Assembly: GCA_965203175.1 (NCBI GenBank)
Contig: OZ241867.1
Span: 2,912,001-2,976,000, forward strand
Length of the DNA: 64,000 bases
Source of the DNA: Candidatus Latescibacterota bacterium
GTDB lineage: Bacteria; Latescibacterota; UBA2968; UBA8231
Direction: 5' to 3'
The translations under genes and the position numbers were made by a program. Shown here piece after piece: positions 46,213 to 61,493 of the stretch. The notes beneath the pieces are model-generated. The model made no database searches. It had not been told where the DNA came from and saw only the letters and a list, made by a program, of their open reading frames with translations. Within the stretch, counting starts at the first letter, position 1, and each line of letters starts with the position of its first letter.

Positions 46213-49200
46213 ATGACCAATCCCCACCTATACCATTTTATGAGATTCACATGCTGCTTTTGTGCGCTAGCCCTTTTTTGCGGAGGCGCGGCTATGGCGG
46301 AATTGCGCGTAAGCGAACAGACGCCACAGCGCCTGCGACTGGTCTGGGTTCCCGAGGGCCGAGAATTAGAACAGGGGCGTGGTGCCTTGATCGGCATCCC
46401 AATCGACGGTCAGGTTCGCTTGGAGTTGGTCGAAGCCCGCGTAGCGCGGACGGATCGCGCCGCTGAGGACGTCGCGCCCACACCTGGGCCGGCCTTCCTC
46501 GGCGAGAGCGGCTTTGCGCGCCGCCAGCGAGTTGTTCCGGTGGCGTTTGCCCCGCGCGTCGAAGCGGACGGGACGCGGACCTTATATGATCGCATCGTCG
46601 TTGACCTACACGTGACCGGCAGTGACGGCACCCGCGTTGCCGATCCTTGGGGCGAAGCATTCTACCGAGGGGTGCTCGCCAACCCCGAGCAAGCCAGAAA
46701 CTGGCGATTGCCACCTAAGCGGCGGCCGGCGCTCAAGGCCGCGTTGCAGGGAGGAACTTGGTTGCGGATCCTCGTCTCGGAAGAGGGGATGTACAGGATC
46801 TCGGGTGCCGACTTAGAGGCCGCCGGGGTGTCGCTCGGCGATGTCGATCCGGCGAGTTTGCGCCTGCACTACGGAGGCGGCAACGCCTTGCCCGTCAACG
46901 AGATAAGCCCGCCCCAAGCCATGCGAGAAGTGGGCTTGGTTGTAGAAGACGGAGGCGATGGCCGCTTGGATGCGGACGACTTCGTCTTGTTTTGGGCCGA
47001 GCCGGTCAGCCGCTGGGAATACGCGCCGGCTAGTCGCTCGTTTCAATATCGGCACAACCTCTACACGCGCGAGAACGCGTACTGGCTGGGTTTTGGCGGT
47101 GGGGTCGAGGGGCAGCGGGCCGAACAGAGGAGCGGTGCCTTAACCGCGGCCGACCCGCAGCAGCCCACGAGCTATCGGATGCGGGTTCACGAGGAAGCCG
47201 AGCAGTTCGTTCTCCACCAACTTTTTAGCATCAAGTCCGGCTATACTTGGTACTGGGAGGACTTTCGCGGCAATGCGCGCAATTTCCCGGTGCTAGTGCG
47301 GCAGGCCGTCTCCGAGCCGGTGGCTGTGCGCTTGGGTTTTATCGGGATACCTGAGACGCGGCCGCGTTTTTCAGTGCGCTGGAACGAAGCGACCATTGGA
47401 ACAGTGACTTTTACATTCCCAAAGCAACTGGGTGACCGGAGGTATGCTGCATCTGATACGCTGTGGGCGGCGCTAGGAGCGCAGGAGGGGCTGAACCACT
47501 TGGGGATCTTCCACTCTGGTAATCCGTGCCGCTTCGACTGGTACGAAGTAGAGTATAGCCGCGGCTTTGTCGCCGAGCGCGGCGAGTTGCTCTTCACCTA
47601 TCCGCTGACGGGCACCACGGAATTTCGCCTCGCTGGTTTTGCTGACGAACAGCCTCGCGTCTTCGAGGTCTCTGCAGGGTTGGCCGAGGTCGTGGACTTC
47701 GCGTACGACGCGCAAGATGGGACGGTAATTTTTCAGGATCAGCCCGGGGATGTGCCGCGTCAGTACGCAGTTGGCGGCCCAGCGACTTGGAAGCGACCCG
47801 TGCGGATCGAACTCGATTTGCCCGGCAATTTGACGACCGGGGCTTGGGGGGCCGATTGGGTGGCGATTTACCACCGCGATTTTCGCGCCGCGGCCGAGCG
47901 CTTGGCGCAATGGCGGGCTGCAGACGACCGCTTCGGTCGGCCCCTGCGGACGGCGGCCATCGACATACAAGACATCTACGACGAGTTTTCCGGCGGGATC
48001 TTGGACCCAACGGCGATCCGCAATTTTCTCGCCTATGCGGCCGAACACTGGGATCCCGTGCCCATGTTCGTGACCTTGATCGGCGACGGCTCGTACGACT
48101 ACAAAAATAATTCGTCCATCAGTCAGGGTAATTGGATCCCAGCTTTCCAAGACGGCGACAGCACGTACGACGAGTGGTACACGCGTGTGGTAGGGGGCGA
48201 TTTGTTTCCCGACATGGCCATTGGTCGGCTGACCGTGCAGACCGCAGCCGAAGCCGATGTAGTCGTCGACAAAATAATTGACTACGACCGCGCACCCGAA
48301 GTGGGGCCTTGGCAGAGCCGAATAGCACTGGTCTCGGACGATTTGCTCAATCGAGACCATCCAGACAAGGTCGAGTCGATGTTTATCCGCGACAGCGAGC
48401 GCATGGCCGAGCACATCCTGCCCAAGGACTTGGACTTGATCAAGCTTTATACCGGACAATTCCCCCTAGAGGGGCAGGAGAAACCGCGGGCACGGGAAGA
48501 GTTCATTCGGCTATTTAACAAAGGCTCGCTAAATTTGATCTATTTGGGGCATGGCACGTACAACCGCTTGTCCCATGAATGGATGTTCTTCCTTTCCCGC
48601 GATTTGGACAAGCTCAAAAACGGCGGTCGCTTGCCCTTGTTTTTCACGGCTGCAAGTCAGGTTGGAGTGTTCGACGATCCCGTGCGTATCTCCACGCCCG
48701 AGGCGCTGCTGCTGAAGGAAGATGGGGGCGTGATCGGCATGATTTGCGCGACCCGGATAGGATATCACCCCACCAATGTCCAGTTGGTCAACCAGTTCTA
48801 CTGGCAGATGTACCGCACCCAACGGGAGCACGTGCCGATTGGGTTGGCCCTCACCGAAGCCAAGCAATTGCTGTTGCCGCGGTATGACTCCAGAGGTGCC
48901 ACAACATTTCGCAACATTCAGCGCTACTCGCTCTTCGGCGATCCGGCGACGCGCTTGGCTGTGCCGCGCTTTCAGGTGCAGATCGATGTGGCCGATTCGC
49001 TCAGTGCCCTCGGCGAAGTGCCCATCGCCGGCCAAGTCCTTGACTCAGCCGGTGAACCAGCCACCGCCTACGAAGGCCAAGTGTGGTTGCAGGCATTTGA
49101 TTCGAGTGCGCAGAGTGACTTAGAGGGTTTTGCCTATGAGCAGACTGGCGCTCCGATTTTTCGCGGCCGCTTTCCAGTAGCCGAAGGCCGCTTCCGCGCT

Positions 49201-49962
49201 GCGTTTCGGGTTCCCAAAGATATTACCTACGGAGGAGAGAACGGCCGCATCAGCGCCTACGCTTGGAGCGATGACAGCCCGGCGGCCTTTGGCTCGGTGA
49301 GCAGTATAGTGCTGGCGGGCACGGCCCAAGGCGTGGAAGCAGACGTGGAAGGGCCGGAAATTTCCCTGCGCTTCGAGGGGGCCAAAGGCACCACGATTCC
49401 GCGGCAGACGGTGTTGTTGGCCTCGATTGCGGATCCCAGCGGCATCAACATCACTGGAGAGACCGGACACGAAATCGAGTTGGCTATCGACGGCGAACTG
49501 TTTACCTTGACGGAGCTTTACAGCGTGCAGGGCGGGGACTATCGGCAGGGGGTCATTGAATTTCCTCTGCCCGAATTGGAAACCGGCAAACGCGAAATCC
49601 GCCTGAAGGCTTGGGACAACTTCAACAATTCGTCGCGCACGACGATGACAGTGAATGTCGCGGATGACGGCGAAGGAACTGCGAGTCTTACCAACGTCCT
49701 GTTTTACCCGAATCCCATGCGCGAGAGCGGCTATTTCACGTATAATCTAGAAGACGACATGCGCGCTGTGCAGATAGAGGTCTTTTCGCTGGCCGGTCGG
49801 CTGATAGAACAGTTGGACGGACAGACGCGCGCTGGATACAACCAAGTACCTTGGACACCACCGGCGGGCTTGGCCAATGGTGCGTATATTTACCGAATAG
49901 AGGCCGAACGGGAAAGCGGTGCTGCGGTTGCGCACCGTGCCGTCTTGCAGGTCGCCAAGTGA
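46213..49962 (+). CDS. porU: Type IX secretion sortase PorU-like protein (peptidase C25/gingipain fold plus CTD)
   Basis: IYDEFSGG, GDGSYDYK, IGRL, YLGHG, LFGDPA, LKAWDNFNN, FYPNP CTD; directly upstream of porV. Confidence 0.85.
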   Translation: MTNPHLYHFMRFTCCFCALALFCGGAAMAELRVSEQTPQRLRLVWVPEGRELEQGRGALIGIPIDGQVRLELVEARVARTDRAAEDVAPTPGPAFLGESGFARRQRVVPVAFAPRVEADGTRTLYDRIVVDLHVTGSDGTRVADPWGEAFYRGVLANPEQARNWRLPPKRRPALKAALQGGTWLRILVSEEGMYRISGADLEAAGVSLGDVDPASLRLHYGGGNALPVNEISPPQAMREVGLVVEDGGDGRLDADDFVLFWAEPVSRWEYAPASRSFQYRHNLYTRENAYWLGFGGGVEGQRAEQRSGALTAADPQQPTSYRMRVHEEAEQFVLHQLFSIKSGYTWYWEDFRGNARNFPVLVRQAVSEPVAVRLGFIGIPETRPRFSVRWNEATIGTVTFTFPKQLGDRRYAASDTLWAALGAQEGLNHLGIFHSGNPCRFDWYEVEYSRGFVAERGELLFTYPLTGTTEFRLAGFADEQPRVFEVSAGLAEVVDFAYDAQDGTVIFQDQPGDVPRQYAVGGPATWKRPVRIELDLPGNLTTGAWGADWVAIYHRDFRAAAERLAQWRAADDRFGRPLRTAAIDIQDIYDEFSGGILDPTAIRNFLAYAAEHWDPVPMFVTLIGDGSYDYKNNSSISQGNWIPAFQDGDSTYDEWYTRVVGGDLFPDMAIGRLTVQTAAEADVVVDKIIDYDRAPEVGPWQSRIALVSDDLLNRDHPDKVESMFIRDSERMAEHILPKDLDLIKLYTGQFPLEGQEKPRAREEFIRLFNKGSLNLIYLGHGTYNRLSHEWMFFLSRDLDKLKNGGRLPLFFTAASQVGVFDDPVRISTPEALLLKEDGGVIGMICATRIGYHPTNVQLVNQFYWQMYRTQREHVPIGLALTEAKQLLLPRYDSRGATTFRNIQRYSLFGDPATRLAVPRFQVQIDVADSLSALGEVPIAGQVLDSAGEPATAYEGQVWLQAFDSSAQSDLEGFAYEQTGAPIFRGRFPVAEGRFRAAFRVPKDITYGGENGRISAYAWSDDSPAAFGSVSSIVLAGTAQGVEADVEGPEISLRFEGAKGTTIPRQTVLLASIADPSGINITGETGHEIELAIDGELFTLTELYSVQGGDYRQGVIEFPLPELETGKREIRLKAWDNFNNSSRTTMTVNVADDGEGTASLTNVLFYPNPMRESGYFTYNLEDDMRAVQIEVFSLAGRLIEQLDGQTRAGYNQVPWTPPAGLANGAYIYRIEAERESGAAVAHRAVLQVAK

Positions 49963-50067
49963 GGCATTGTGAGAGGAGTGCTTTTGCATCAGTGAGATCG
50001 TCTTAGTACGCAGGAGGCATCATTTTTATATTTTATCCCGAGCTGAGGAGGACTCCGCTATGAGGAA
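49941..50067 (+). repeat. Direct repeat copy 1 (porU 3' end, intergenic region, RBS and start)
   Basis: CGTCTTGCAGGTCGCCAAGTGAG...GAGCTGAGGAGGACTC...ATGAGGAA; similar to 53863-53978. Confidence 0.85.
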
Positions 50068-51109
50068 TCTGACGACCTTACTGATGGTCTGTCTTTGCAT
50101 GGGTGTGTGGCCCACTAGGGTGCAGGCCACGCCCGAGAGCCGCGCAGGCGTGCTTTTTCTGTTGATCGAGCCAGGGGCCCGCGCCGTTGCCATGGGCGAA
50201 TCGTACGTGGCAGTGGCCGACGACGCCACGGCCGGCTACTTCAATCCGGCTTCCTTAGTCGGGCAGAGCAGAAAAAAGATGCACTTTACCCACAGCAAAT
50301 GGCTGCCTGGGCTGGCCGACGATTTGTCCTACGAGTTTTTGGCCTATTCTATGCCGATAGAAGGTGGAGGCATTGGCTTCAACGTCGCGTTAATGAACCT
50401 GGGCGAGCAGACTCGCACGGGAGAGCGCGGCGAAGTCCTAGGCACCTTCCGCAGTCATGAAGTGGCAGTGTCTGCAGCTTATGGGGCACAGATCGGTAAC
50501 AAAACGACCGCTGGCATCAGTTTGAAGTTCATCCGCAGCAGTTTGGCTCCTGTGGGAGCTGGCAGAGAGCGCGGCGAGGGCATAGGCAATAGCTTTGCCG
50601 CAGATTTGGGATTTTTGTGGAGGGCTACGCCTGATCTCAATATGGGCATAGCTTTGCGCAATTTGGGTCCCAAGATCGCGTATATCGACGCCAGCCAGGC
50701 CGATCCGCTGCCCCAGCACATCGTCGTTGGGGTGGCTTATGAGGTGATGGATACCCAGTACAACGACCTACTATTGTCCTGTGATCTATACAAGCCCTTG
50801 ATCGCCGATGGATCGTTTGTGAGCAACTTGGCCACGTCTTGGGCCGACGAGAGCTTGAGCAATGAATTTAAGGAGATGGATCTGCGCGTGGGCGGCGAGT
50901 ACCAGTACGGGCTTTCCGCGCGCGAGGACGAGGCCTTCATTGCATTGCGCTCCGGTATTTCGCTGGACAGAGATGGCGAACTAAATGTCCAGACCTTCGG
51001 CCTTGGGCTAAAGTACAACCGCATCCAGATCGACGTGGCTTATGTCATCGGCAATGATCAATCGCCGATGGATGACAATGTGCGGTATTCGATGAATCTC
51101 CTTTTTTAG
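50060..51109 (+). CDS. porV: PorV/PorQ-family outer-membrane beta-barrel
   Basis: FLLIEPGARAVAMGE, YFNPA, HSKWLP, NLGPKI...DPLP; C-terminal Phe. Confidence 0.85.
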   Translation: MRNLTTLLMVCLCMGVWPTRVQATPESRAGVLFLLIEPGARAVAMGESYVAVADDATAGYFNPASLVGQSRKKMHFTHSKWLPGLADDLSYEFLAYSMPIEGGGIGFNVALMNLGEQTRTGERGEVLGTFRSHEVAVSAAYGAQIGNKTTAGISLKFIRSSLAPVGAGRERGEGIGNSFAADLGFLWRATPDLNMGIALRNLGPKIAYIDASQADPLPQHIVVGVAYEVMDTQYNDLLLSCDLYKPLIADGSFVSNLATSWADESLSNEFKEMDLRVGGEYQYGLSAREDEAFIALRSGISLDRDGELNVQTFGLGLKYNRIQIDVAYVIGNDQSPMDDNVRYSMNLLF

Positions 51110-51127: not shown

Positions 51128-53854
51128 TTGTTCCTCTTAGGCGTCTGCTTCACGCTGTTGTTGTCGGCGACCACTGCGGCTGCGGCCGAGTGGCGAGTCT
51201 TGGCCTTGCGAGTCGATTTTCCGCGCGAGAATCCCGACGAGTTGACGACGACCGGCGTCGGGGCCTTTGATTTGCGCTCTGCGTCGGCGGCTGAAGATTA
51301 CGTGCTTCCCTACGACCTGCCGCCGCACGACCGCGCTTATTTCGAGCGGCATTTGACCGCGCTGGCGCGCTATTACGAGGTCGTTTCCACAGGTCGGGTG
51401 GCGATCTCCGGCGAGGTGTTCCCCCGCGCCGCACGGCAGGCGTACGCGCTTCCCCAATCCATGCTCCACTATGGCAATGGACGCACAACTGAGGAGATCG
51501 GCGCGAAGTGGATCGAACTGGTGCGCGATGCCCTTGACGCCGCCCAGGCCGATCCCGACGGCCCGCGCTTGGACGAATTCAACAGCTTCCTCGTGTTCCA
51601 CGCCGGGGTCGGCCATGAGACCGGCGAACTGAACGACATCCGCTCGGTCTTCCTCGACGAGAGCGATTTTGCGCGCTTTAACGGCGGGCCGCTGACTGTG
51701 GGCGACGCGGAGATCGATCAGGCGTGGATCCTGCCGGAGTCGCCCAGCCTCAATGGCCGGGCCGGTCTCAATGGTTTGCTGGCTAAGTTCTTTGGCCACC
51801 ACTTAGGCCTACCTGGGTTGTCCAATTTCGCCGATGGCCTGCCGGCCCTAGGAGGCTGGAGCCTAATGGACGTGGGGGCCAGCGCTTTGGGCTATGTGCG
51901 GACCGACAGCCTCGCGTGGGTACGCGGCTTTGCGCCGCCGCATCCCATGGCTTGGAGCAAGATGCAGCTAGGGTGGGTCGAGCCAGTGGTGGTGCGGCGC
52001 GATACCGTACTATCGCTGCTGGCGACTGATCGCAGCGGCGATCTCCCCAAGGCAGTGCGCATACCCATTGACGCGCGCGAATACTTCTTGCTGGAGAACA
52101 GGCAGCAGCGCGGTCAGCGCGGCGTTGTGGAGGACGAAGACGAGGATAAGGTGTGGATTGACCCCGATCAGGTCACCATAGAAGAGGGCGTGTGGGTAGC
52201 GATGGAGGAATACGACGCCTTTGTCCCGGGATCGGGGGTGCTGATATGGCACGTGGATGAGGGCGTAATGGCGCGCGCTGAGGATCCCAATGCCGCGAAC
52301 AATCAGCTCCACTGGAAGGGAATTGCCTTGGAAGAGGCCGACGGGTACCGCGACATTGGCGATCCGCGCCGTTCGTGGGAGTTGCAAGTCGATGGATGGC
52401 CAGACGACCCGTTCTTCGTCGGCGGACAAACGCTATTCGGCTCGGCGACTCAACCTGACTCACGCAGCAACCGGGAGTGGGAGACCGGTATTGAGATCGA
52501 AGTACTTTCCGCACCCGGCGATACCATGCAGGTGGCCATACGCTTTGGGCGCGCCCGGCCGGGCTGGCCGCGGGATTTGCCGGGTGACGGTCGGCTGCAA
52601 GCTGCGGATTTGGACGGCGACGGAATAGAAGAGTTGCTCTTTGAGGCTAGGAGTGGGGTCGGCTATGCGACCGCAGACGCTGTGGCGTCGTGGCGAGTAC
52701 AGGATGCGCGACTGCTGGCGGCTGGGGACGGCGACGATGATGGCCAGCCCGCGGTTTTTTTGCGGCGCGACGCAGAGATCAGCGCGTGGGATGCCGGAGC
52801 TGATCAACCGCTGTGGCGGCTCGCGCTAGACGAGGTCCCGTTGGACGCGCGTTTCAGCGCGGGTGCGGAGGCCGAGCTGTTACTCGTCGGAGCGGAACAG
52901 ACCTATGTGGTAGATGCCATAAGCGGCGAGTTAAAGGAGCAAAGGCCGCCGATAATGTCTTCGGCTGTGGGCGATTTGGACGGTGACGGCCAAGTCGAGT
53001 GGGTCTTCGCCATGGCCGACGGACAGGTCGAGATCGGCTCGCAGGCCGTTGAGTTGGGCGATTCGCTCGCTGCGCCTCCGGTCCTAGGCGATTTGGACGG
53101 CGATGGCTTGTTGGAAGTGGTTTTGCTCGCGCGCGGTGGAACGATACACGCCCTGCGAGCCGACGGATTGCGCCAAGCCGACTTTCCCGCTGCCCTGCCG
53201 AGCTTTGCCGCGGTCGGCGATCTCGTCTTCGAGCCGGTGCTTTGCGACGTGGATGCCGACGGCAAGCAGGAGATATTTGTCGCTGGCCACAGCGGAATTT
53301 TCGGTGTGGATGATGATGGGAGATTGTTGCCGGGCTTCCCCCTGCTGATGGCCGCTCCCCCAACGGGGTCGCCGGTGGTATTGGACTTAGACGGCGATGG
53401 CCGCTTGGCTTTAGCCGCCTTGGATGGCGCGGCCGTATATGCGTGGGATCTGCAGAGGGTGGCGGCGCAGTACGCTGGAGGGCCAGCCCATTGGCCGCAG
53501 GCGGGTGCCGATGCGGCTGGGTCGCGGACTGCGCTGGTGGCCGGTCGCCCCGTTGTAAAGCCCGAGGCGGCCTTGCTAGGCCGAGTCTATTGCTACCCCA
53601 ATCCAGTCGGCCCCGGTGAAGCGGCACATTTGCGCTTTGCGCTAAGCGCGGCCGGGCGCATCGAATTGGAGGTGTTCGATGCGTTGGGTGGTCGCGTTGA
53701 GCAACACCGCAGCAATGGTTTGGAAGCCGGTGAGCGCGAAATCACTTGGTCTGTGAAAGACTATGCCAGTGGCCTGTATCTATGCCGATTAATCGCGCAC
53801 GGCGACGACGGACGGCGGGGAGAAACTGTGGTCAAAATGGCGGTGAGTCAGTGA
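51128..53854 (+). CDS. M6 (immune inhibitor A)-like domain with a degenerate Zn motif, FG-GAP repeats and a T9SS-type CTD
   Basis: RVDF, FHAG, GHHLGLP, WSLMD, WSKMQLGW, EYFLLENR, GVLIWHVD; DLDGDG; YCYPNP...ASGLY. Confidence 0.78.
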   Translation: MFLLGVCFTLLLSATTAAAAEWRVLALRVDFPRENPDELTTTGVGAFDLRSASAAEDYVLPYDLPPHDRAYFERHLTALARYYEVVSTGRVAISGEVFPRAARQAYALPQSMLHYGNGRTTEEIGAKWIELVRDALDAAQADPDGPRLDEFNSFLVFHAGVGHETGELNDIRSVFLDESDFARFNGGPLTVGDAEIDQAWILPESPSLNGRAGLNGLLAKFFGHHLGLPGLSNFADGLPALGGWSLMDVGASALGYVRTDSLAWVRGFAPPHPMAWSKMQLGWVEPVVVRRDTVLSLLATDRSGDLPKAVRIPIDAREYFLLENRQQRGQRGVVEDEDEDKVWIDPDQVTIEEGVWVAMEEYDAFVPGSGVLIWHVDEGVMARAEDPNAANNQLHWKGIALEEADGYRDIGDPRRSWELQVDGWPDDPFFVGGQTLFGSATQPDSRSNREWETGIEIEVLSAPGDTMQVAIRFGRARPGWPRDLPGDGRLQAADLDGDGIEELLFEARSGVGYATADAVASWRVQDARLLAAGDGDDDGQPAVFLRRDAEISAWDAGADQPLWRLALDEVPLDARFSAGAEAELLLVGAEQTYVVDAISGELKEQRPPIMSSAVGDLDGDGQVEWVFAMADGQVEIGSQAVELGDSLAAPPVLGDLDGDGLLEVVLLARGGTIHALRADGLRQADFPAALPSFAAVGDLVFEPVLCDVDADGKQEIFVAGHSGIFGVDDDGRLLPGFPLLMAAPPTGSPVVLDLDGDGRLALAALDGAAVYAWDLQRVAAQYAGGPAHWPQAGADAAGSRTALVAGRPVVKPEAALLGRVYCYPNPVGPGEAAHLRFALSAAGRIELEVFDALGGRVEQHRSNGLEAGEREITWSVKDYASGLYLCRLIAHGDDGRRGETVVKMAVSQ

Positions 53855-53862
53855 GGGGTTGG

Positions 53863-53978
53863 CGTCTTGCAGGTCGCCAAGTGAGCATTGCGAGAGGAGT
53901 GCCTTTGCAGCAGTGAGATCGCCTTAGTACTGGAGGCATCATTGTATTGTGAGCTGAGGAGGACTCTTCGATGAGGAA
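53863..53978 (+). repeat. Direct repeat copy 2
   Basis: Near-copy of 49941-50067 with small indels. Confidence 0.85.
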
Positions 53979-56900
53979 ACAGGCGACCTTGCTGATGGCC
54001 GGTCGTTGCGCGTTTTGTCTGTTGCTCGGCTGGGCGAGCGCATCCCGCGCCCAAAATCACCCGGAACTGGCGTGGCAGGTGGTGGAGACCGAGCACTTTC
54101 GCATTTTTTACCACGAAGGACTGGAAGGGGCGGCGGCGCGGGCAGCGCGCATTGCCGAAGCTGCGTACGCGCCCCTTACCGAGCTGTATGGATACGCGCC
54201 CGACGGCCGCGTGCGGATCGTGCTCAAAGACCACGACGATTACGCCAATGGCGCGGCTTTTTTCTATCAAGACACCATTGAAATTTGGGCCACGTCGCTC
54301 GACCACGACTTTGACTTGCGCGGCAGTTCGGACTGGCTGCGCAACGTAATTACTCACGAGTTTGCCCATATCATTTCGCTAGGTGTTGCGCGCAAGGGCG
54401 TGCAGCGCGTCCCTGCGCTCTACTTGCAGTACTTTGGCTATCAGCGGGAGAAAAACCGGCCGGACATTCTCATTGGCTACCCGGATGTCATCGCTTCCTA
54501 TCCGGTGATGGGCACGGTGATGCCCATGTGGCTGGCCGAAGGCGCGGCCCAGTACGGGACTGCGACTACGGCTCACGACCGGTGGGATGCCAATCGCGAC
54601 ATGGTGCTCCGCTCCTTGGTGCTTGCAGACGAACAGCTATCCTTCGAGCAAATGGGCGTCTTTGGCAAGCAGGGCTTTGGCAACGAATACGTGTACGACC
54701 ACGGTTTTGCCTTGGTGCGCTATATTGCCGAGACGTACGGCGAAGAAAAAATCGTCGAACTGTACCGGGCCGCATCGCAATGGCATGCGCTCGCCATTGA
54801 CGGGGCGTGCAAAAAGATCCTGGGCAAGAACGCGGATAAGCTGTACGGCGAGTGGATCGAATCTTTGCGGCAGGGCTATCGGGCGCAGGTAGCGGCGTTG
54901 GGGCCGCTGCGCGAGGGCGAGCGGGTCGTGGATGTCGGCTTTTCCAATCTGCGGCCACGGCTGGCGCCCAATGGCGAAAAATTGGCGTATCTATCGACGC
55001 GCAAACGGCACCACGGTCCGCACGGCTTGATCGTGCGCGACCTCGCTACGGGCGAGGAAGAAGTCGCAGCCTTTCCGGCGGCGGCTTCGACTGTGGACTG
55101 GTCGCCGGACGGGCGCAAGCTGCTCTTTTCGCGCATCGACCGGGCGGACAAATACGGTTCGCGGCAGGCGGATATCTACGAGTGGAACTCCGCTGCGGCC
55201 GGCCCTAGTTTTTGGCGCAATATGCTGTGGTTCGTGCCGGCCATGGTCAGTGGCACGGCACCGGAGACGCCGCGCGTCAAGCGGCTGACGCGAGGGCTGC
55301 GCGCGCTGTACCCGACCTATTCGCCCGATGGCGAGTGGATCGTCTTCGTGCAAAACAAGGGCACCAGCAACAACTTGGCGATGATCCGGGCCGACGGCAC
55401 GGGCCTGCGCTATCTAACCCATTTCGCGGATGGCACCCAGCTCTACACGCCGCGCTTTTCGCCCGACGGACGCAAGCTGGCGTTTGCGATCTCGCGCGAG
55501 GGACAGCGCGACCTCGCCGTGGTGGAATTGGACGCGGACGTCGCTGGTGCAACACCTCTACTCGCTGAAGGGGCATTTGACCTCGCCATTGCCACGCCGG
55601 GTACGGATCGCGATCCAGCGTGGAGCGCGGACGGTACAGAACTCTTCTTTGCGTCGGATTTCAGCGGCATTTTCAATATCTATGCTCTAAACTTGGAAAC
55701 GCGCGCGCTGCGGCAACTAACCAACACCATCGGCGGCGCGTTTAACCCATCGGTCGGCCCAGAGGGCGAGGTCGTCTTTACGGCGTATGCGGCGTCTGGC
55801 TTTGAGATTCGCCGGTTGCACGACGAGGGGACGCCGGTTGCGGCTGAGGAAGCGTGGTTTTCTCAAGATGTGCCGCCAGACTGGCGCGGTACGCCAGTGC
55901 CCGCATTGCCGAGTGCGCCCCAGGCATATGGCATCGACTTCCTTAAAACCGGGATCCTGCCGAGGCTGTTTATGGACGAGGGGCATTTCAAGGCGGGTGC
56001 GTACCTCACTTCTGGCGACGTGCTCAATCGCCAGAGCGTATTAGCCGGGGGTGCCATTGCGCCGGATAACGCAGACCGCGATCTGTTCGCTATATACGAG
56101 TTCAAGGGCTTTCGCCCCACTTTCTTTTTAGAGGTATTCAACCAGCGTCGGCGCTCAGCCCGCGGCGATAGCTCGGAAGCGCGGGCGGGCATTGTCAATG
56201 CCGTCAACTTCAGCTTGAGTCAGCTCAATGTGGGGGTGCGCGGCAAATTGGGTCGCCACGGGGAGCTGACGGCCTCGGCTACGTATGACCGCTACGATGC
56301 CAGCGTCCAATGGGATGCTTTTGTCCCGCGCCGCGATGGCGGCCTCGGTTTTGAGCGCCAGCGACAAAAGCCCTTTGGCTATACCTATCTCAATGGTTTT
56401 GGGCTGGGGTTGACCTATCGGATGGAGCTGATTTCGCGGCGGCGGGACCGCGATATAAATCCTTTGGGCCGCCAGCTCTACGCGCGCTACGACCGGATGT
56501 TTAACTATTTCATCGACGGCTTTAACGAGCAGTCGTCCTTTATCGACGAGAATTACATCAAGCTGTTTTACAATCAGTTTACCGTCGATTGGAAAGAGTA
56601 CATTAGCATGCCCGGCAATACTCGCTTGGGCCTGCGGCTATACGGCGGCTGGATCGACAGCGAGGCGGTCGCCGACACGACGCGGGTACGCGGTTTCTTC
56701 GACTACCGCCTCGGCGGCCTCAATTTCATGAAGGGCTATACTTTTTACAGTATCGAGGGGCGCAAGGCCCTGATGGGCACGGCGATGCTGCGCTTCCCCC
56801 TGCTGCCGGATATGAGCCAGCGCGTTGCGCAGTTGTATTTCGACAAAGTCTATGGCGCAGTGTACACTAGCATGGGCAAGGCTTGGGACCGGAACATCGG

Positions 56901-57087
56901 CGAGTGGAACGAAAGGTATGGACGCGATGGACCGTTGCGGGATGTGGGGGGGCAGTTGCGCTTTGACTTGATTTCTTATTACAGCGTGCCGACGCGGGTG
57001 CAGCTGGATGTGGCGTATGGGATTGACGAGGTACAAGATAAGGGGCGGTGGAAGTCTTATTTTACCGTGTTGTTCGGTTATTTGTAG
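53971..57087 (+). CDS. Zincin-like N-domain, TolB/PD40 propeller and probable Omp85-like C-terminal beta-barrel
   Basis: Signal peptide; ETEHFRIFY, HEFAH, WLAEG; WSPDG/FSPDG repeats; LGG..FMKGY and amphipathic strands. Confidence 0.72.
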   Translation: MRKQATLLMAGRCAFCLLLGWASASRAQNHPELAWQVVETEHFRIFYHEGLEGAAARAARIAEAAYAPLTELYGYAPDGRVRIVLKDHDDYANGAAFFYQDTIEIWATSLDHDFDLRGSSDWLRNVITHEFAHIISLGVARKGVQRVPALYLQYFGYQREKNRPDILIGYPDVIASYPVMGTVMPMWLAEGAAQYGTATTAHDRWDANRDMVLRSLVLADEQLSFEQMGVFGKQGFGNEYVYDHGFALVRYIAETYGEEKIVELYRAASQWHALAIDGACKKILGKNADKLYGEWIESLRQGYRAQVAALGPLREGERVVDVGFSNLRPRLAPNGEKLAYLSTRKRHHGPHGLIVRDLATGEEEVAAFPAAASTVDWSPDGRKLLFSRIDRADKYGSRQADIYEWNSAAAGPSFWRNMLWFVPAMVSGTAPETPRVKRLTRGLRALYPTYSPDGEWIVFVQNKGTSNNLAMIRADGTGLRYLTHFADGTQLYTPRFSPDGRKLAFAISREGQRDLAVVELDADVAGATPLLAEGAFDLAIATPGTDRDPAWSADGTELFFASDFSGIFNIYALNLETRALRQLTNTIGGAFNPSVGPEGEVVFTAYAASGFEIRRLHDEGTPVAAEEAWFSQDVPPDWRGTPVPALPSAPQAYGIDFLKTGILPRLFMDEGHFKAGAYLTSGDVLNRQSVLAGGAIAPDNADRDLFAIYEFKGFRPTFFLEVFNQRRRSARGDSSEARAGIVNAVNFSLSQLNVGVRGKLGRHGELTASATYDRYDASVQWDAFVPRRDGGLGFERQRQKPFGYTYLNGFGLGLTYRMELISRRRDRDINPLGRQLYARYDRMFNYFIDGFNEQSSFIDENYIKLFYNQFTVDWKEYISMPGNTRLGLRLYGGWIDSEAVADTTRVRGFFDYRLGGLNFMKGYTFYSIEGRKALMGTAMLRFPLLPDMSQRVAQLYFDKVYGAVYTSMGKAWDRNIGEWNERYGRDGPLRDVGGQLRFDLISYYSVPTRVQLDVAYGIDEVQDKGRWKSYFTVLFGYL

Positions 57088-59304: not shown

Positions 59305-59910
59305 ATGTGGCGCTGGATCGCGTTGATTTTGTTGTTGCCCGGCGTGGCTGAGGCCGGGACGTCTCAAGGGGCGTTTTGGCGCTCCTTGCTGTTGCCCGGT
59401 TGGGGGCAGAAATACGCCCGTGGTGGCGGCGGTGGTTTCTTGGCCGCTGAGCTGGCACTTTGGGGCGGCTATTGGGGTTTTGAGTGGCTGGGCCAAGTGC
59501 GCCGTGGTCAGTACCGGGCGCATGCGGCGGAACGCGCTGGTGCGCGGCCCGAGGGCAAGGACCGCGTCTACTTCGACGACTTGGGGTTTTACACGAGCCG
59601 GCTAGAGCACAACCAGTTCGCCCGCTACGAGGACGGCCCAGACGCCGAGCTCTATCCTGTGGACGCGGATTTCTTCTGGGAGTGGGATCGCGACGAGTCG
59701 CGCCAGCGCTACCGCGAGTTGCGCAATGCGAGCCAGCACGCGCACCGGCAGGCGCTCTATATGACGGGCTTGGTGGCCGTCAATCACATCGTGGCTGCCA
59801 TCCATGCGGCGCGGGTAGCTCGTGCAGATCAAGCTCAGCTTGGCTTTGCGCCCAAGGTAGCGGTGGGGCCTGGGGGAGCGGCTTTCTTCTTGGTGCGGCA
59901 TTTCTACTGA
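59305..59910 (+). CDS. DUF5683-like protein, paralog of the upstream gene
   Basis: SLLLPGWGQKY; NHIVAAIHA; ATG at 59305. Confidence 0.6.
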   Translation: MWRWIALILLLPGVAEAGTSQGAFWRSLLLPGWGQKYARGGGGGFLAAELALWGGYWGFEWLGQVRRGQYRAHAAERAGARPEGKDRVYFDDLGFYTSRLEHNQFARYEDGPDAELYPVDADFFWEWDRDESRQRYRELRNASQHAHRQALYMTGLVAVNHIVAAIHAARVARADQAQLGFAPKVAVGPGGAAFFLVRHFY

Positions 59911-61493
59911 TGGCCTGCTTTTTCCCGCGGATGGCCTTGGCCGCGTGGATGCTCTCGCTGCCGCTGACGGTTGCAGCCGAAGAGCGAATATGCGGGACGC
60001 GCTGGCTCGAGCAGCACCGCGCGTCTTTCCCCGCGCCAGCCCCCAAGGCAGTCGGCGCAAGTCAAGAGCTAAGCCCCATTGAGGTGGGGACTCAGCTCGC
60101 CTTTTACGTGCCGACCGAATTCGTACTCAAATCGGCCACTTGCCGCTACAAGGGGACGCACTGCTACATCTTCGTCGAAGAAAGTCAGTGGGACATCATC
60201 GCGGCCCAGCCAGATGTGGATAAGCTGGGTGCGCTTTTTGACGCGGCGACTCCGGCTGATTCCGAGCGCGGAGTATTTGAAATAGCGGTCGATGCCTTTG
60301 GCGAGCCTGCCGATGAGGACGGCGATCCCCGCATTTTCATTCTGATTTTGGACCTGCCCAGCAACATAGTCGGATTTTTCGATGGTGCGCTGTACGAGCG
60401 GGCGCAGCCCGAACTCCGACGCGATACGATTTACCTGGACGCGAACAAGCTGGCCTTTAGCGCCTATCTCGCCTACGCGACCTTAGCGCACGAATTCCAG
60501 CATCTAATTCATTGGGGCCGCGATTCAGACGAAGAGAGATGGATCGACGAAGGGCTTTCTGGGTACGCCGAGGAGCTAGTCGGTTTCCCCGAGGCCGATC
60601 CGAGCATGGTGCCGAGTTTTCTCGCGGATCCCAGTATCAATCTAACGCACTTTGTGTTTGATTCAGCAAATTACGGCAAGACCTATTTGTTTGCCTCGTT
60701 TTTGGCCGAGCGCTATGGCTCGGGGCTGATTCGCCAAATCGTCGCCGAGCCGCGCAACGGCATTTCGGGCATTGACGACGCGTTCAAGAACCAAAACTGG
60801 GTTGAGGATTACGCGGGTGCTTGGCGTTTGTGGATTGCGGCTAACTACGCGGGTGGGTACGAGGCCCTGCGCGGCCGCCGCGTCGCCGCAGTTGCAGCGC
60901 CTGATGTGCCTTTCGCAGAACTGGCCGGCGAGGTCGGCAGCCAATGGGGTGCAGCCAATGTAGTTATTCGCTCGGAGGGGGATGTAGTCGTTGATTTCGC
61001 TGGCGCGGCCGAAGGGGACTATGCTGCGTGGGTGTACGCCATGCGCGACCAGCGCGGCGAGCTTATAGCGATGGAACTTAGCGCGGACAACACAGGGCAG
61101 GTGCAGGTCGCGGATGTAGATAGCGCGGCGGTCATCGTCGGCAGGGCTTCGCCGACGGGTGGTGATTTTGTCCTCGCGGCTCGGTATTTTACGCCCACAG
61201 TCGTAGCGATGCAAATAGAGGAACGGACCGGGGCTAATGACTTGGCACCGGCTTATCCGAATCCGGCCAACAGCGCGGTGAATCTGCCCTTTCGCTTGGC
61301 AAGAGAAGCGGATGTCGAACTGGCGATATACAATGCCTTGGGCCAGCGCGCGACCCTTTTGGTGGCGGAGCGGCTCGCGGCCGGGGAGCACTTGGCGCGC
61401 TGGGGCGGTGAGCGCGCGGCTAGTGGGGCGTATTGGGCCGTGCTGAAGGTCGGTGGGGAAACGCGGACGCGCCGGTTGATGTTGGTCCGGTGA
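59910..61493 (+). CDS. Secreted zinc metallopeptidase (M30-like) with a T9SS-type CTD
   Basis: AHEFQHLIH, WIDEGLS; AYPNP...IYNALGQ...ASGAY...TRRLMLVR. Confidence 0.78.
   Translation: MACFFPRMALAAWMLSLPLTVAAEERICGTRWLEQHRASFPAPAPKAVGASQELSPIEVGTQLAFYVPTEFVLKSATCRYKGTHCYIFVEESQWDIIAAQPDVDKLGALFDAATPADSERGVFEIAVDAFGEPADEDGDPRIFILILDLPSNIVGFFDGALYERAQPELRRDTIYLDANKLAFSAYLAYATLAHEFQHLIHWGRDSDEERWIDEGLSGYAEELVGFPEADPSMVPSFLADPSINLTHFVFDSANYGKTYLFASFLAERYGSGLIRQIVAEPRNGISGIDDAFKNQNWVEDYAGAWRLWIAANYAGGYEALRGRRVAAVAAPDVPFAELAGEVGSQWGAANVVIRSEGDVVVDFAGAAEGDYAAWVYAMRDQRGELIAMELSADNTGQVQVADVDSAAVIVGRASPTGGDFVLAARYFTPTVVAMQIEERTGANDLAPAYPNPANSAVNLPFRLAREADVELAIYNALGQRATLLVAERLAAGEHLARWGGERAASGAYWAVLKVGGETRTRRLMLVR

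Follow-up and report, generated by a model that had tools for sequence, protein, structure and literature searches.

Serine at the catalytic-cysteine position of a PorU sortase homologue from Latescibacterota

The porU gene and its genomic background

The window analysed here is a stretch of 64,000 nucleotides from a Candidatus Latescibacterota bacterium (contig OZ241867.1, positions 2,912,001 to 2,976,000), and its coordinates are used throughout unless another contig is named. On its forward strand lies a gene for a homologue of PorU, the sortase of the T9SS (type IX secretion system), in which serine is found where the catalytic cysteine is expected. PorU finishes type IX secretion by removing the sorting domain of the cargo and, in Porphyromonas, by attaching the cargo to the cell surface by way of a thioester intermediate at Cys690. 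The open reading frame (ORF) runs from 46213 to 49962 (+) and encodes 1249 amino acids counted from its first ATG. It scored 632.1 bits, for a cut-off of 420, against the NCBIfam model NF033707 (type IX secretion system sortase PorU), residues 178-1235 covering model positions 2-1081 of 1095. A Peptidase C25 catalytic domain (gingipain fold, clan CD; Pfam PF01364, 255.7 bits) occupies residues 551-915 (47863..48957, +). The protein carries its own C-terminal T9SS type-A sorting domain (CTD) at residues 1165-1234 (49705..49914, +), with a borderline score of 23.6 bits for a TIGR04183 cut-off of 23, and with 19.4 bits for Pfam PF18962, under the cut-off of 27 of that model. The start of the gene is uncertain, given the 1249 amino acids counted here versus 1214-1222 for most homologues. 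The first 28 residues (46213-46300) include four cysteines within a signal-peptide-like stretch, and align poorly with relatives.

A porV-like gene for an outer-membrane shuttle protein starts 98 bases downstream (50060..51109, +). It scored 223.5 bits with the PorV/PorQ family model NF033709 (cut-off 90), 153.9 bits with the PorV equivalog, under the cut-off of 250, and 54.2 bits with the Pfam PorV model. The family score, the C25 domain and this adjoining PorV-family gene bear out the identification as PorU proposed in the initial annotation. In its architecture, its family score and its gene context the ORF is a PorU, but not a canonical one, the catalytic cysteine that defines the family being replaced.

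The genome consists of one contig of 6.58 Mb with 59% G+C and contains a single PF01364 match. A purpose-built C25 hidden Markov model (HMM) run against 35,586 six-frame ORFs of at least 80 amino acids gave one hit (6e-169), the next match having E = 0.12, and no second C25 or PorU gene was found in the genome with PF01364, NF033707 or this HMM. By these searches the ORF is the orthologous and sole PorU of this organism. Among the 31 genomes of the same genus searched with the same protein query, 25 had the Ser-type PorU alone and 6 had more than one C25 match. Since it is the sole C25 gene in this genome and in most of the genus, the Ser-type PorU is no helper of a Cys-bearing paralogue there. 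Type IX secretion is probably in heavy use, judging from 103 matches to the type-A CTD model TIGR04183 at E <= 0.001 (PorU itself included) and from a SprA/Sov translocon scoring 618 bits, with neighbouring matches in the same frame. The ChiA-type C-terminal signal NF033708 had 0 matches in the genome.

Histidine and serine at the catalytic positions

The bases 48541-48555 read TAT TTG GGG CAT GGC (YLGHG) and place the catalytic histidine of the dyad, His780, at codon CAT (48550..48552, +). Thirty-five residues further, bases 48631-48657 read TTG CCC TTG TTT TTC ACG GCT GCA AGT (LPLFFTAAS), and the last of these codons, AGT (48655..48657, +), encodes Ser815; it is one base, a transversion, away from TGT. 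The sole match of a phmmer search against the sequences of the PDB was the P. gingivalis PorU structure 6za2_A (E = 5.9e-57, residues 556-1237). In this alignment 'ylghg' stood opposite 'yaghg' and 'fftaasq' opposite 'witatcd', so that His780 fell on chain index 655 (His) and Ser815 on chain index 688 (Cys). With an offset of 2, which we infer, index 688 would be the residue known in the literature as C690. Excerpts of PMC5562754 present porU C690A as a published catalytic mutant of P. gingivalis, and excerpts of a review (PMC10202324) attribute to PorU a Cys/His dyad as well as an intermediate of the thioester type. The initial annotation had reported an intact catalytic histidine and a serine at the exact position of the catalytic cysteine; both readings agree with the codons and with their partners in 6ZA2, the alignment of homologues also placing Ser815 in the cysteine column and His780 being invariant in relatives.

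Residues 540-930 were modelled with AlphaFold2 on the basis of 74 aligned sequences; the predicted local distance difference test (pLDDT) score was 93.4 and the predicted template modelling (pTM) score 0.93. The model places His780 two residues beyond strand 774-778 and Ser815 two residues beyond the neighbouring strand 809-813. Histidine and nucleophile position would thus follow the C-terminal ends of adjacent strands, as in the clan CD fold, and Ser815 fills the column in which clan CD enzymes and PorU have their cysteine nucleophile. By strand topology, the predicted geometry of His780 and Ser815 is canonical. Foldseek matched the model to RgpB with template modelling (TM) scores of 0.74-0.75, to Kgp with 0.67-0.70, and also to the PorU structure 6ZA2.

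Compared with P. gingivalis PorU, the protein shares a family score over the cut-off, the succession of N-terminal domains, C25 domain and retained CTD, the adjoining PorV gene, the catalytic histidine and most invariant residues. It differs in having serine for the Cys690 nucleophile, within AASQVGVFDDP where P. gingivalis reads ATCDF, and in its host, a member of the Latescibacterota from sponge metagenomes, and not of the Bacteroidota. The gingipains RgpB and Kgp (MEROPS family C25, clan CD) come closest to the model in structure, and share the predicted location of histidine and nucleophile after the ends of adjacent strands. At 14-19% identity, however, they are cysteine enzymes and act as secreted proteases rather than as a sortase.

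Conservation of the serine

Among the 120 best homologues from a collection of 5.8 billion proteins (59-94% identical in the domain), together with the query, all 121 sequences had both serine and histidine; the few named ones belong to Latescibacteria or Latescibacterota. Across genomes belonging to the same phylum, codons were read at 70 loci, 48 of the Ser type and 22 of the Cys type. The serine was encoded by AGT at 29 loci and by AGC at 19, and the cysteine by TGC at 19 and by TGT at 3. The initial annotation had expected that conservation across the lineage, especially with TCN codons, would point to selection. Conservation was found (121 of 121 sequences and all 48 Ser-type loci), but TCN codons were absent from the 48 loci, and the test of selection based on them is therefore uninformative. 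The alternation between AGT and AGC, synonymous and leaving the amino acid unchanged, may serve as a weaker substitute sign of selection.

Logan contigs of four public runs (here X1, X3, X8 and X15), most of them labelled sponge metagenome, were compared over the region of the site. Run X1 covered the entire stretch with two differences, C>T and T>C, and may be the source of the assembly itself. Two contigs of run X3 (48294-48630 and 48601-48743) had no difference, and A>T changes were absent altogether from run X8. In the RNA run X15, a 670-base contig crossed the site at about 94% identity, with 39 differences and a lone A>T at 48533; it comes from a relative and, as part of an RNA library, is no proof of transcription. 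A further 89 differences were counted by kind only, and the per-run tallies by kind exclude A>T at 48655. The reads had been named in the initial annotation as a place where TGT might appear; at 48655 none of the four runs carried it, and the serine stands.

These data bear on the possibility that the serine stems from a mistake in sequencing or assembly, or from a mutation that recently inactivated a decaying gene. AGT is indeed a single transversion from TGT, as such an event would have it. However, serine is present in all 121 homologues and at all 48 Ser-type loci, the contigs of independent studies are in accord, and the ORF is unbroken, with a strongly conserved catalytic domain. Error or recent inactivation was rejected on the homologues, the loci and the public contigs, and its probability is judged negligible.

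A relocated nucleophile, with Ser815 as a bystander, was likewise considered. The obvious candidate is Cys845, the cysteine of the GMICAT motif, which lies on the strand following the nucleophile loop and corresponds to a serine in P. gingivalis. Its column is nevertheless variable in the 121 full-length members of the clade (66 Ser, 49 Cys and 6 Ala), and the remaining cysteine of the mature part of the query, Cys439, is common to just 10 of these 121. No conserved cysteine was found anywhere in PorU, no other column among the 121 clade members reaching 30% Cys. Since no cysteine position is conserved in the Ser clade, a relocated thiol is excluded; Cys845 and other cysteines were rejected as nucleophiles, and a role for any other residue is rated very improbable. 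The GMICAT cysteine, on which the initial annotation had made its own claim depend, leaves the assignment of the nucleophile position to Ser815 unaffected.

Distribution and origin of the substitution

A HMMER search against 1.84 billion cluster representatives returned 14,020 relatives, the best 150 of which were examined together with the query. Of these 151 proteins, 148 span both catalytic sites (P0132, P0139 and P0144 do not). Histidine and cysteine were found in 130 of the 148, and histidine and serine in 13, all at least 48% identical to the query. The apparent exceptions were rejected: three rows with threonine were one-column slips with a cysteine adjacent, P0142 (I/S) is a 303-residue fragment carrying the Ser motif, and P0193 (G/S) is a misaligned protein of 30% identity, which was left out of the Ser-clade counts. 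In a MAFFT alignment of 252 domains covering the query, the catalytic column contained serine in the 129 rows of true Ser type, cysteine in the 122 more distant rows of Cys type, and nothing else. The His780 column was invariant in both sets (129/129 and 122/122).

Trees were computed without the catalytic column. All Ser rows grouped with a single Cys protein, P0131, in a clade with 100% support in the Shimodaira-Hasegawa-like approximate likelihood ratio test (SH-aLRT). P0131 is the nearest Cys relative (47% identity) and carries the motif TAACAVGQFDHP. The free tree search implied two state changes, with P0131 placed beside the Ser protein P0130 at 85% SH-aLRT. A tree in which the Ser rows were held together was 7.97 log-likelihood units better, with a p-value of 0.69 in the approximately unbiased test (p-AU), the group having been defined after the first tree was seen. 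Because the tree holding the Ser rows together scores better, a single origin was accepted, and the swap fits best as the mark of one Latescibacterota PorU clade whose simplest history would be one TGY>AGY transversion.

Every genus sampled from the family to which the window belongs had Ser-type PorU, as did one genus placed in a different class (G010, 49% identity). In the phylum's other classes PorU is of the Cys type, at 32-43% identity. The swap from cysteine to serine is old and strictly conserved.

The other genera of the family have 2-3 Ser-type paralogues per genome, all with serine and histidine. They also carry a long PorU-like protein of about 1800-2470 amino acids with an intact His-Cys dyad, found at L087 (3187-8799, -), at L088 (3259-8964, +) and also at L082-L086. 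The open frames encode 1813-2467 amino acids, those of L087 and L088 being ORFs of 1870 and 1901 amino acids, respectively. This paralogue shares the C25 domain with the Ser-type protein (32-34% identity), but has the His-Cys dyad, with motif LSCLNG, and scores 257-350 bits, below the PorU cut-off of 420 and also below that of PorU2. No PorV-family match was found beside it at L087 and L088, in the four flanking ORFs scanned, two to either side of the paralogue. The long paralogue was absent from the window's genome in the searches with PF01364 and the C25 HMM. Two families of the same class that have no PorU ortholog (f3 and f4) gave only weak C25 matches (E about 1e-35 to 1e-46), and the one match that was read, in genome G083, was of the long form.

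Constraint and clade-specific residues around Ser815

Entropy was compared in sets thinned at 80% identity, which left 45 rows of the Ser type (pairwise identity 62% on average and 46% at the lowest) and 122 of the Cys type. In the Ser clade, conservation within the domain is highest in the 25-residue window that encloses the nucleophile position, residues 806-830 (48628..48702, +; RLPLFFTAASQVGVFDDPVRISTPE). It ranked first of 366 windows, with an entropy of 0.52 of the domain mean, versus rank 85 of 366 and 0.91 in Cys-type PorU. The next strand and loop (839-856) behaved likewise, at 0.55 in the Ser clade versus 0.91 in the Cys type, and the corresponding values for the His loop were 0.59 and 0.69. 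Loss of catalysis is usually followed by relaxed constraint. The tightening seen around Ser815 is the opposite of what would be expected of an abandoned active site.

Sixteen positions were fixed at 90% or more in the Ser clade with residues found in less than 10% of the Cys type: D571, R573, G575, D647, S650, Y652, E654, E753, T776, A814, Q816, P829, V840, G850, H852 and S906. Seven of these substitutions, T776, A814, Q816, P829, V840, G850 and H852, flank the catalytic residues. Judged by topology, residues 776, 814, 816, 829 and 850-852 would lie at strand ends or in loops along the sheet's catalytic edge. The Cys sister protein P0131 already has D571, R573, G575, E654, A814 and H852. P829 and G850 are shared by all Ser lineages but missing from P0131, and are found only together with the serine; Q816, absent from the deep Ser branch P0129, is a later addition. 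This distribution looks like a stepwise retuning of the site by clade-specific substitutions.

Catalytic or non-catalytic PorU

The initial annotation had offered two alternatives, a sortase with a serine nucleophile or an inactive scaffold, and this was the right framing. Of the two we lean towards the catalytic one, since the nucleophile's surroundings are under tightened, not relaxed, constraint. That PorU is active through a Ser-His pair is given an even chance. The evidence that makes us lean this way comprises the sole gene copy together with the large CTD cargo, the invariant serine and histidine, the tightened loop and the stepwise fixed substitutions. A more specific scenario, held just short of even, is that the clade runs type IX secretion with a Ser-His PorU whose acyl intermediate is an oxy-ester. 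Such a PorU would be the first enzyme in nature to use a serine nucleophile in the clan CD (caspase/gingipain) fold, derived from one TGY>AGY change and subsequently retuned in the neighbouring loops, through P829 and G850 and then Q816. Type-A CTD cargo would exit through SprA onto PorV and arrive at PorU, where Ser815 would attack the peptide bond preceding the CTD. An oxy-ester would result, versus the thioester of Porphyromonas PorU, and could be resolved either by an amine acceptor (transpeptidation) or by water (release). Transpeptidation by serine acyl-enzymes is established, penicillin-binding proteins being an example. We infer the catalysis by Ser815, the tuning of the site by the adjacent clade-specific substitutions and the nature of the acceptor. 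Cysteine and serine nucleophiles are interchangeable in the chymotrypsin fold as well, picornain 3C being mentioned in excerpts of PMC3220528.

Several points weigh against catalysis by the serine. Divergence within the Ser clade is lower than within the Cys set, and the entropy ranks, normalised within each set, compare sets of unmatched depth; a strongly conserved pocket would moreover fit a binding-only receptor too. In clan CD enzymes, Cys-to-Ser mutants are used as dead variants, for example separase C2029S (9hm7, listed by Foldseek). The only studied natural Ser-for-Cys member of the clan, T. brucei MCA4 (family C14B), keeps its histidine and is inactive, and the change S219C restores activity; the excerpted text also has its authors state that no serine-nucleophile protease was known in the caspase fold (PMC3220528).

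The competing explanation is a conserved pseudo-sortase, in which catalysis was lost with the change from cysteine to serine and PorU persists in the attachment complex without a catalytic role, docked on PorV and holding cargo CTDs in what used to be the active-site cleft. The CTD would then stay on the cargo, as the initial annotation proposed for an inactive scaffold, or another agent would trim or anchor the cargo. MCA4 sets a precedent within the clan, with serine for the catalytic cysteine and the histidine kept, since excerpts of PMC3220528 describe it as inactive yet essential, conserved and biologically important. The likeness is incomplete: MCA4 stands beside active Cys paralogues, whereas the PorU studied here is the sole family member in its genome, where no other C25 gene accompanies the 103 CTD matches, nor was one found in 25 of the 31 genomes of the genus. 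Its nucleophile loop is also the most constrained part of the domain. A binding role for PorU is suggested by P. gingivalis, in which the porU C690A mutant still forms PorU-PorV and cargo stays on PorV with its CTD, as given in excerpts of PMC5562754; PorU therefore has binding roles besides catalysis. NCBI uses the term 'inactivated' in naming the family matched by the neighbouring M6-like gene, and non-catalytic protease folds may therefore belong to the machinery. In related genomes, the long Cys-bearing PorU-like paralogue could supply the chemistry. Against loss of catalysis, all 129 sequences keep both serine and histidine, and no window of the domain is more conserved than the nucleophile loop. 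A residue retained for structure only would be expected to vary at times to Ala, Gly or Thr, none of which was seen. The pseudo-sortase is viewed as the main competitor, somewhat less likely than the catalytic reading. What weight remains goes to other outcomes, which include a different reaction besides the relocated nucleophile and the error discussed above.

No paper joining PorU and Latescibacteria, or Latescibacter* and type IX secretion, was found in a literature search whose coverage leaves subscription journals largely outside. Within the same coverage, the MCA4 article alone was found for a serine nucleophile in clan CD, and no result for PorU with catalytic cysteine and serine looked on subject, judged by titles and abstract openings. 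Whichever alternative holds, a whole family and at least one genus of another class keep PorU, PorV, SprA and about 100 CTD cargo genes despite a long-standing serine. If the serine enzyme works, it would answer a question open since 2011, whether the caspase fold supports a serine nucleophile, and would provide a sortase chemistry insensitive to oxidation. If it is inactive, a large cargo set would pass through type IX secretion with the sortase reaction missing, and the accepted view of the final step would have to change.

Neighbouring genes and further observations

The third gene of the cluster (51128..53854, +) encodes a homologue of M6-like metalloproteases with FG-GAP repeats (Pfam FG-GAP_3) and a T9SS CTD (Por_Secre_tail). 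It scored 300.6 bits against NF052323, 'T9SS-dependent M6-like inactivated metalloprotease', under the cut-off of 600. The protein reads KFFGH at the place of HExxH, which we take to be the zinc motif of M6 enzymes, and its zinc site looks degenerate for this reason. It would be a second protease fold that looks devoid of catalytic residues, adjoining the Ser-type PorU.

Directly 3' of this gene lies 53971-57087 (+), whose 1038-residue product contains beta-propeller repeats of the TolB-like kind (110 bits with TIGR02800, far under the cut-off). PorZ of Porphyromonas consists of beta-propellers, which makes this product a candidate PorZ-like partner. Further downstream, 59484-61493 (+) encodes a protein of 669 amino acids with an MXAN_6640-like HExxH metalloprotease region, below the cut-off, and a T9SS type-A CTD of 26.1 bits versus a cut-off of 23. 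It is likely a cargo protein encoded near the sortase cluster. Upstream of porU, the genes belong to unrelated metabolism and include a galactonate-dehydratase-like protein and GlcE.

Elsewhere in the genome, outside the window, five neighbouring open frames of 683-752 amino acids (G000:C1, 2453768-2462871, -) and four of 819-1075 amino acids (G000:C1, 2087193-2098848, +) each end in a terminal type-A CTD. Both runs look like tandem families of T9SS cargo.

DNA nearly identical to positions 48000-49200 was present in runs of several studies, mostly labelled sponge metagenome, and sponge metatranscriptome libraries contained contigs about 94% identical across the catalytic region. An association of the lineage with sponges seems likely.

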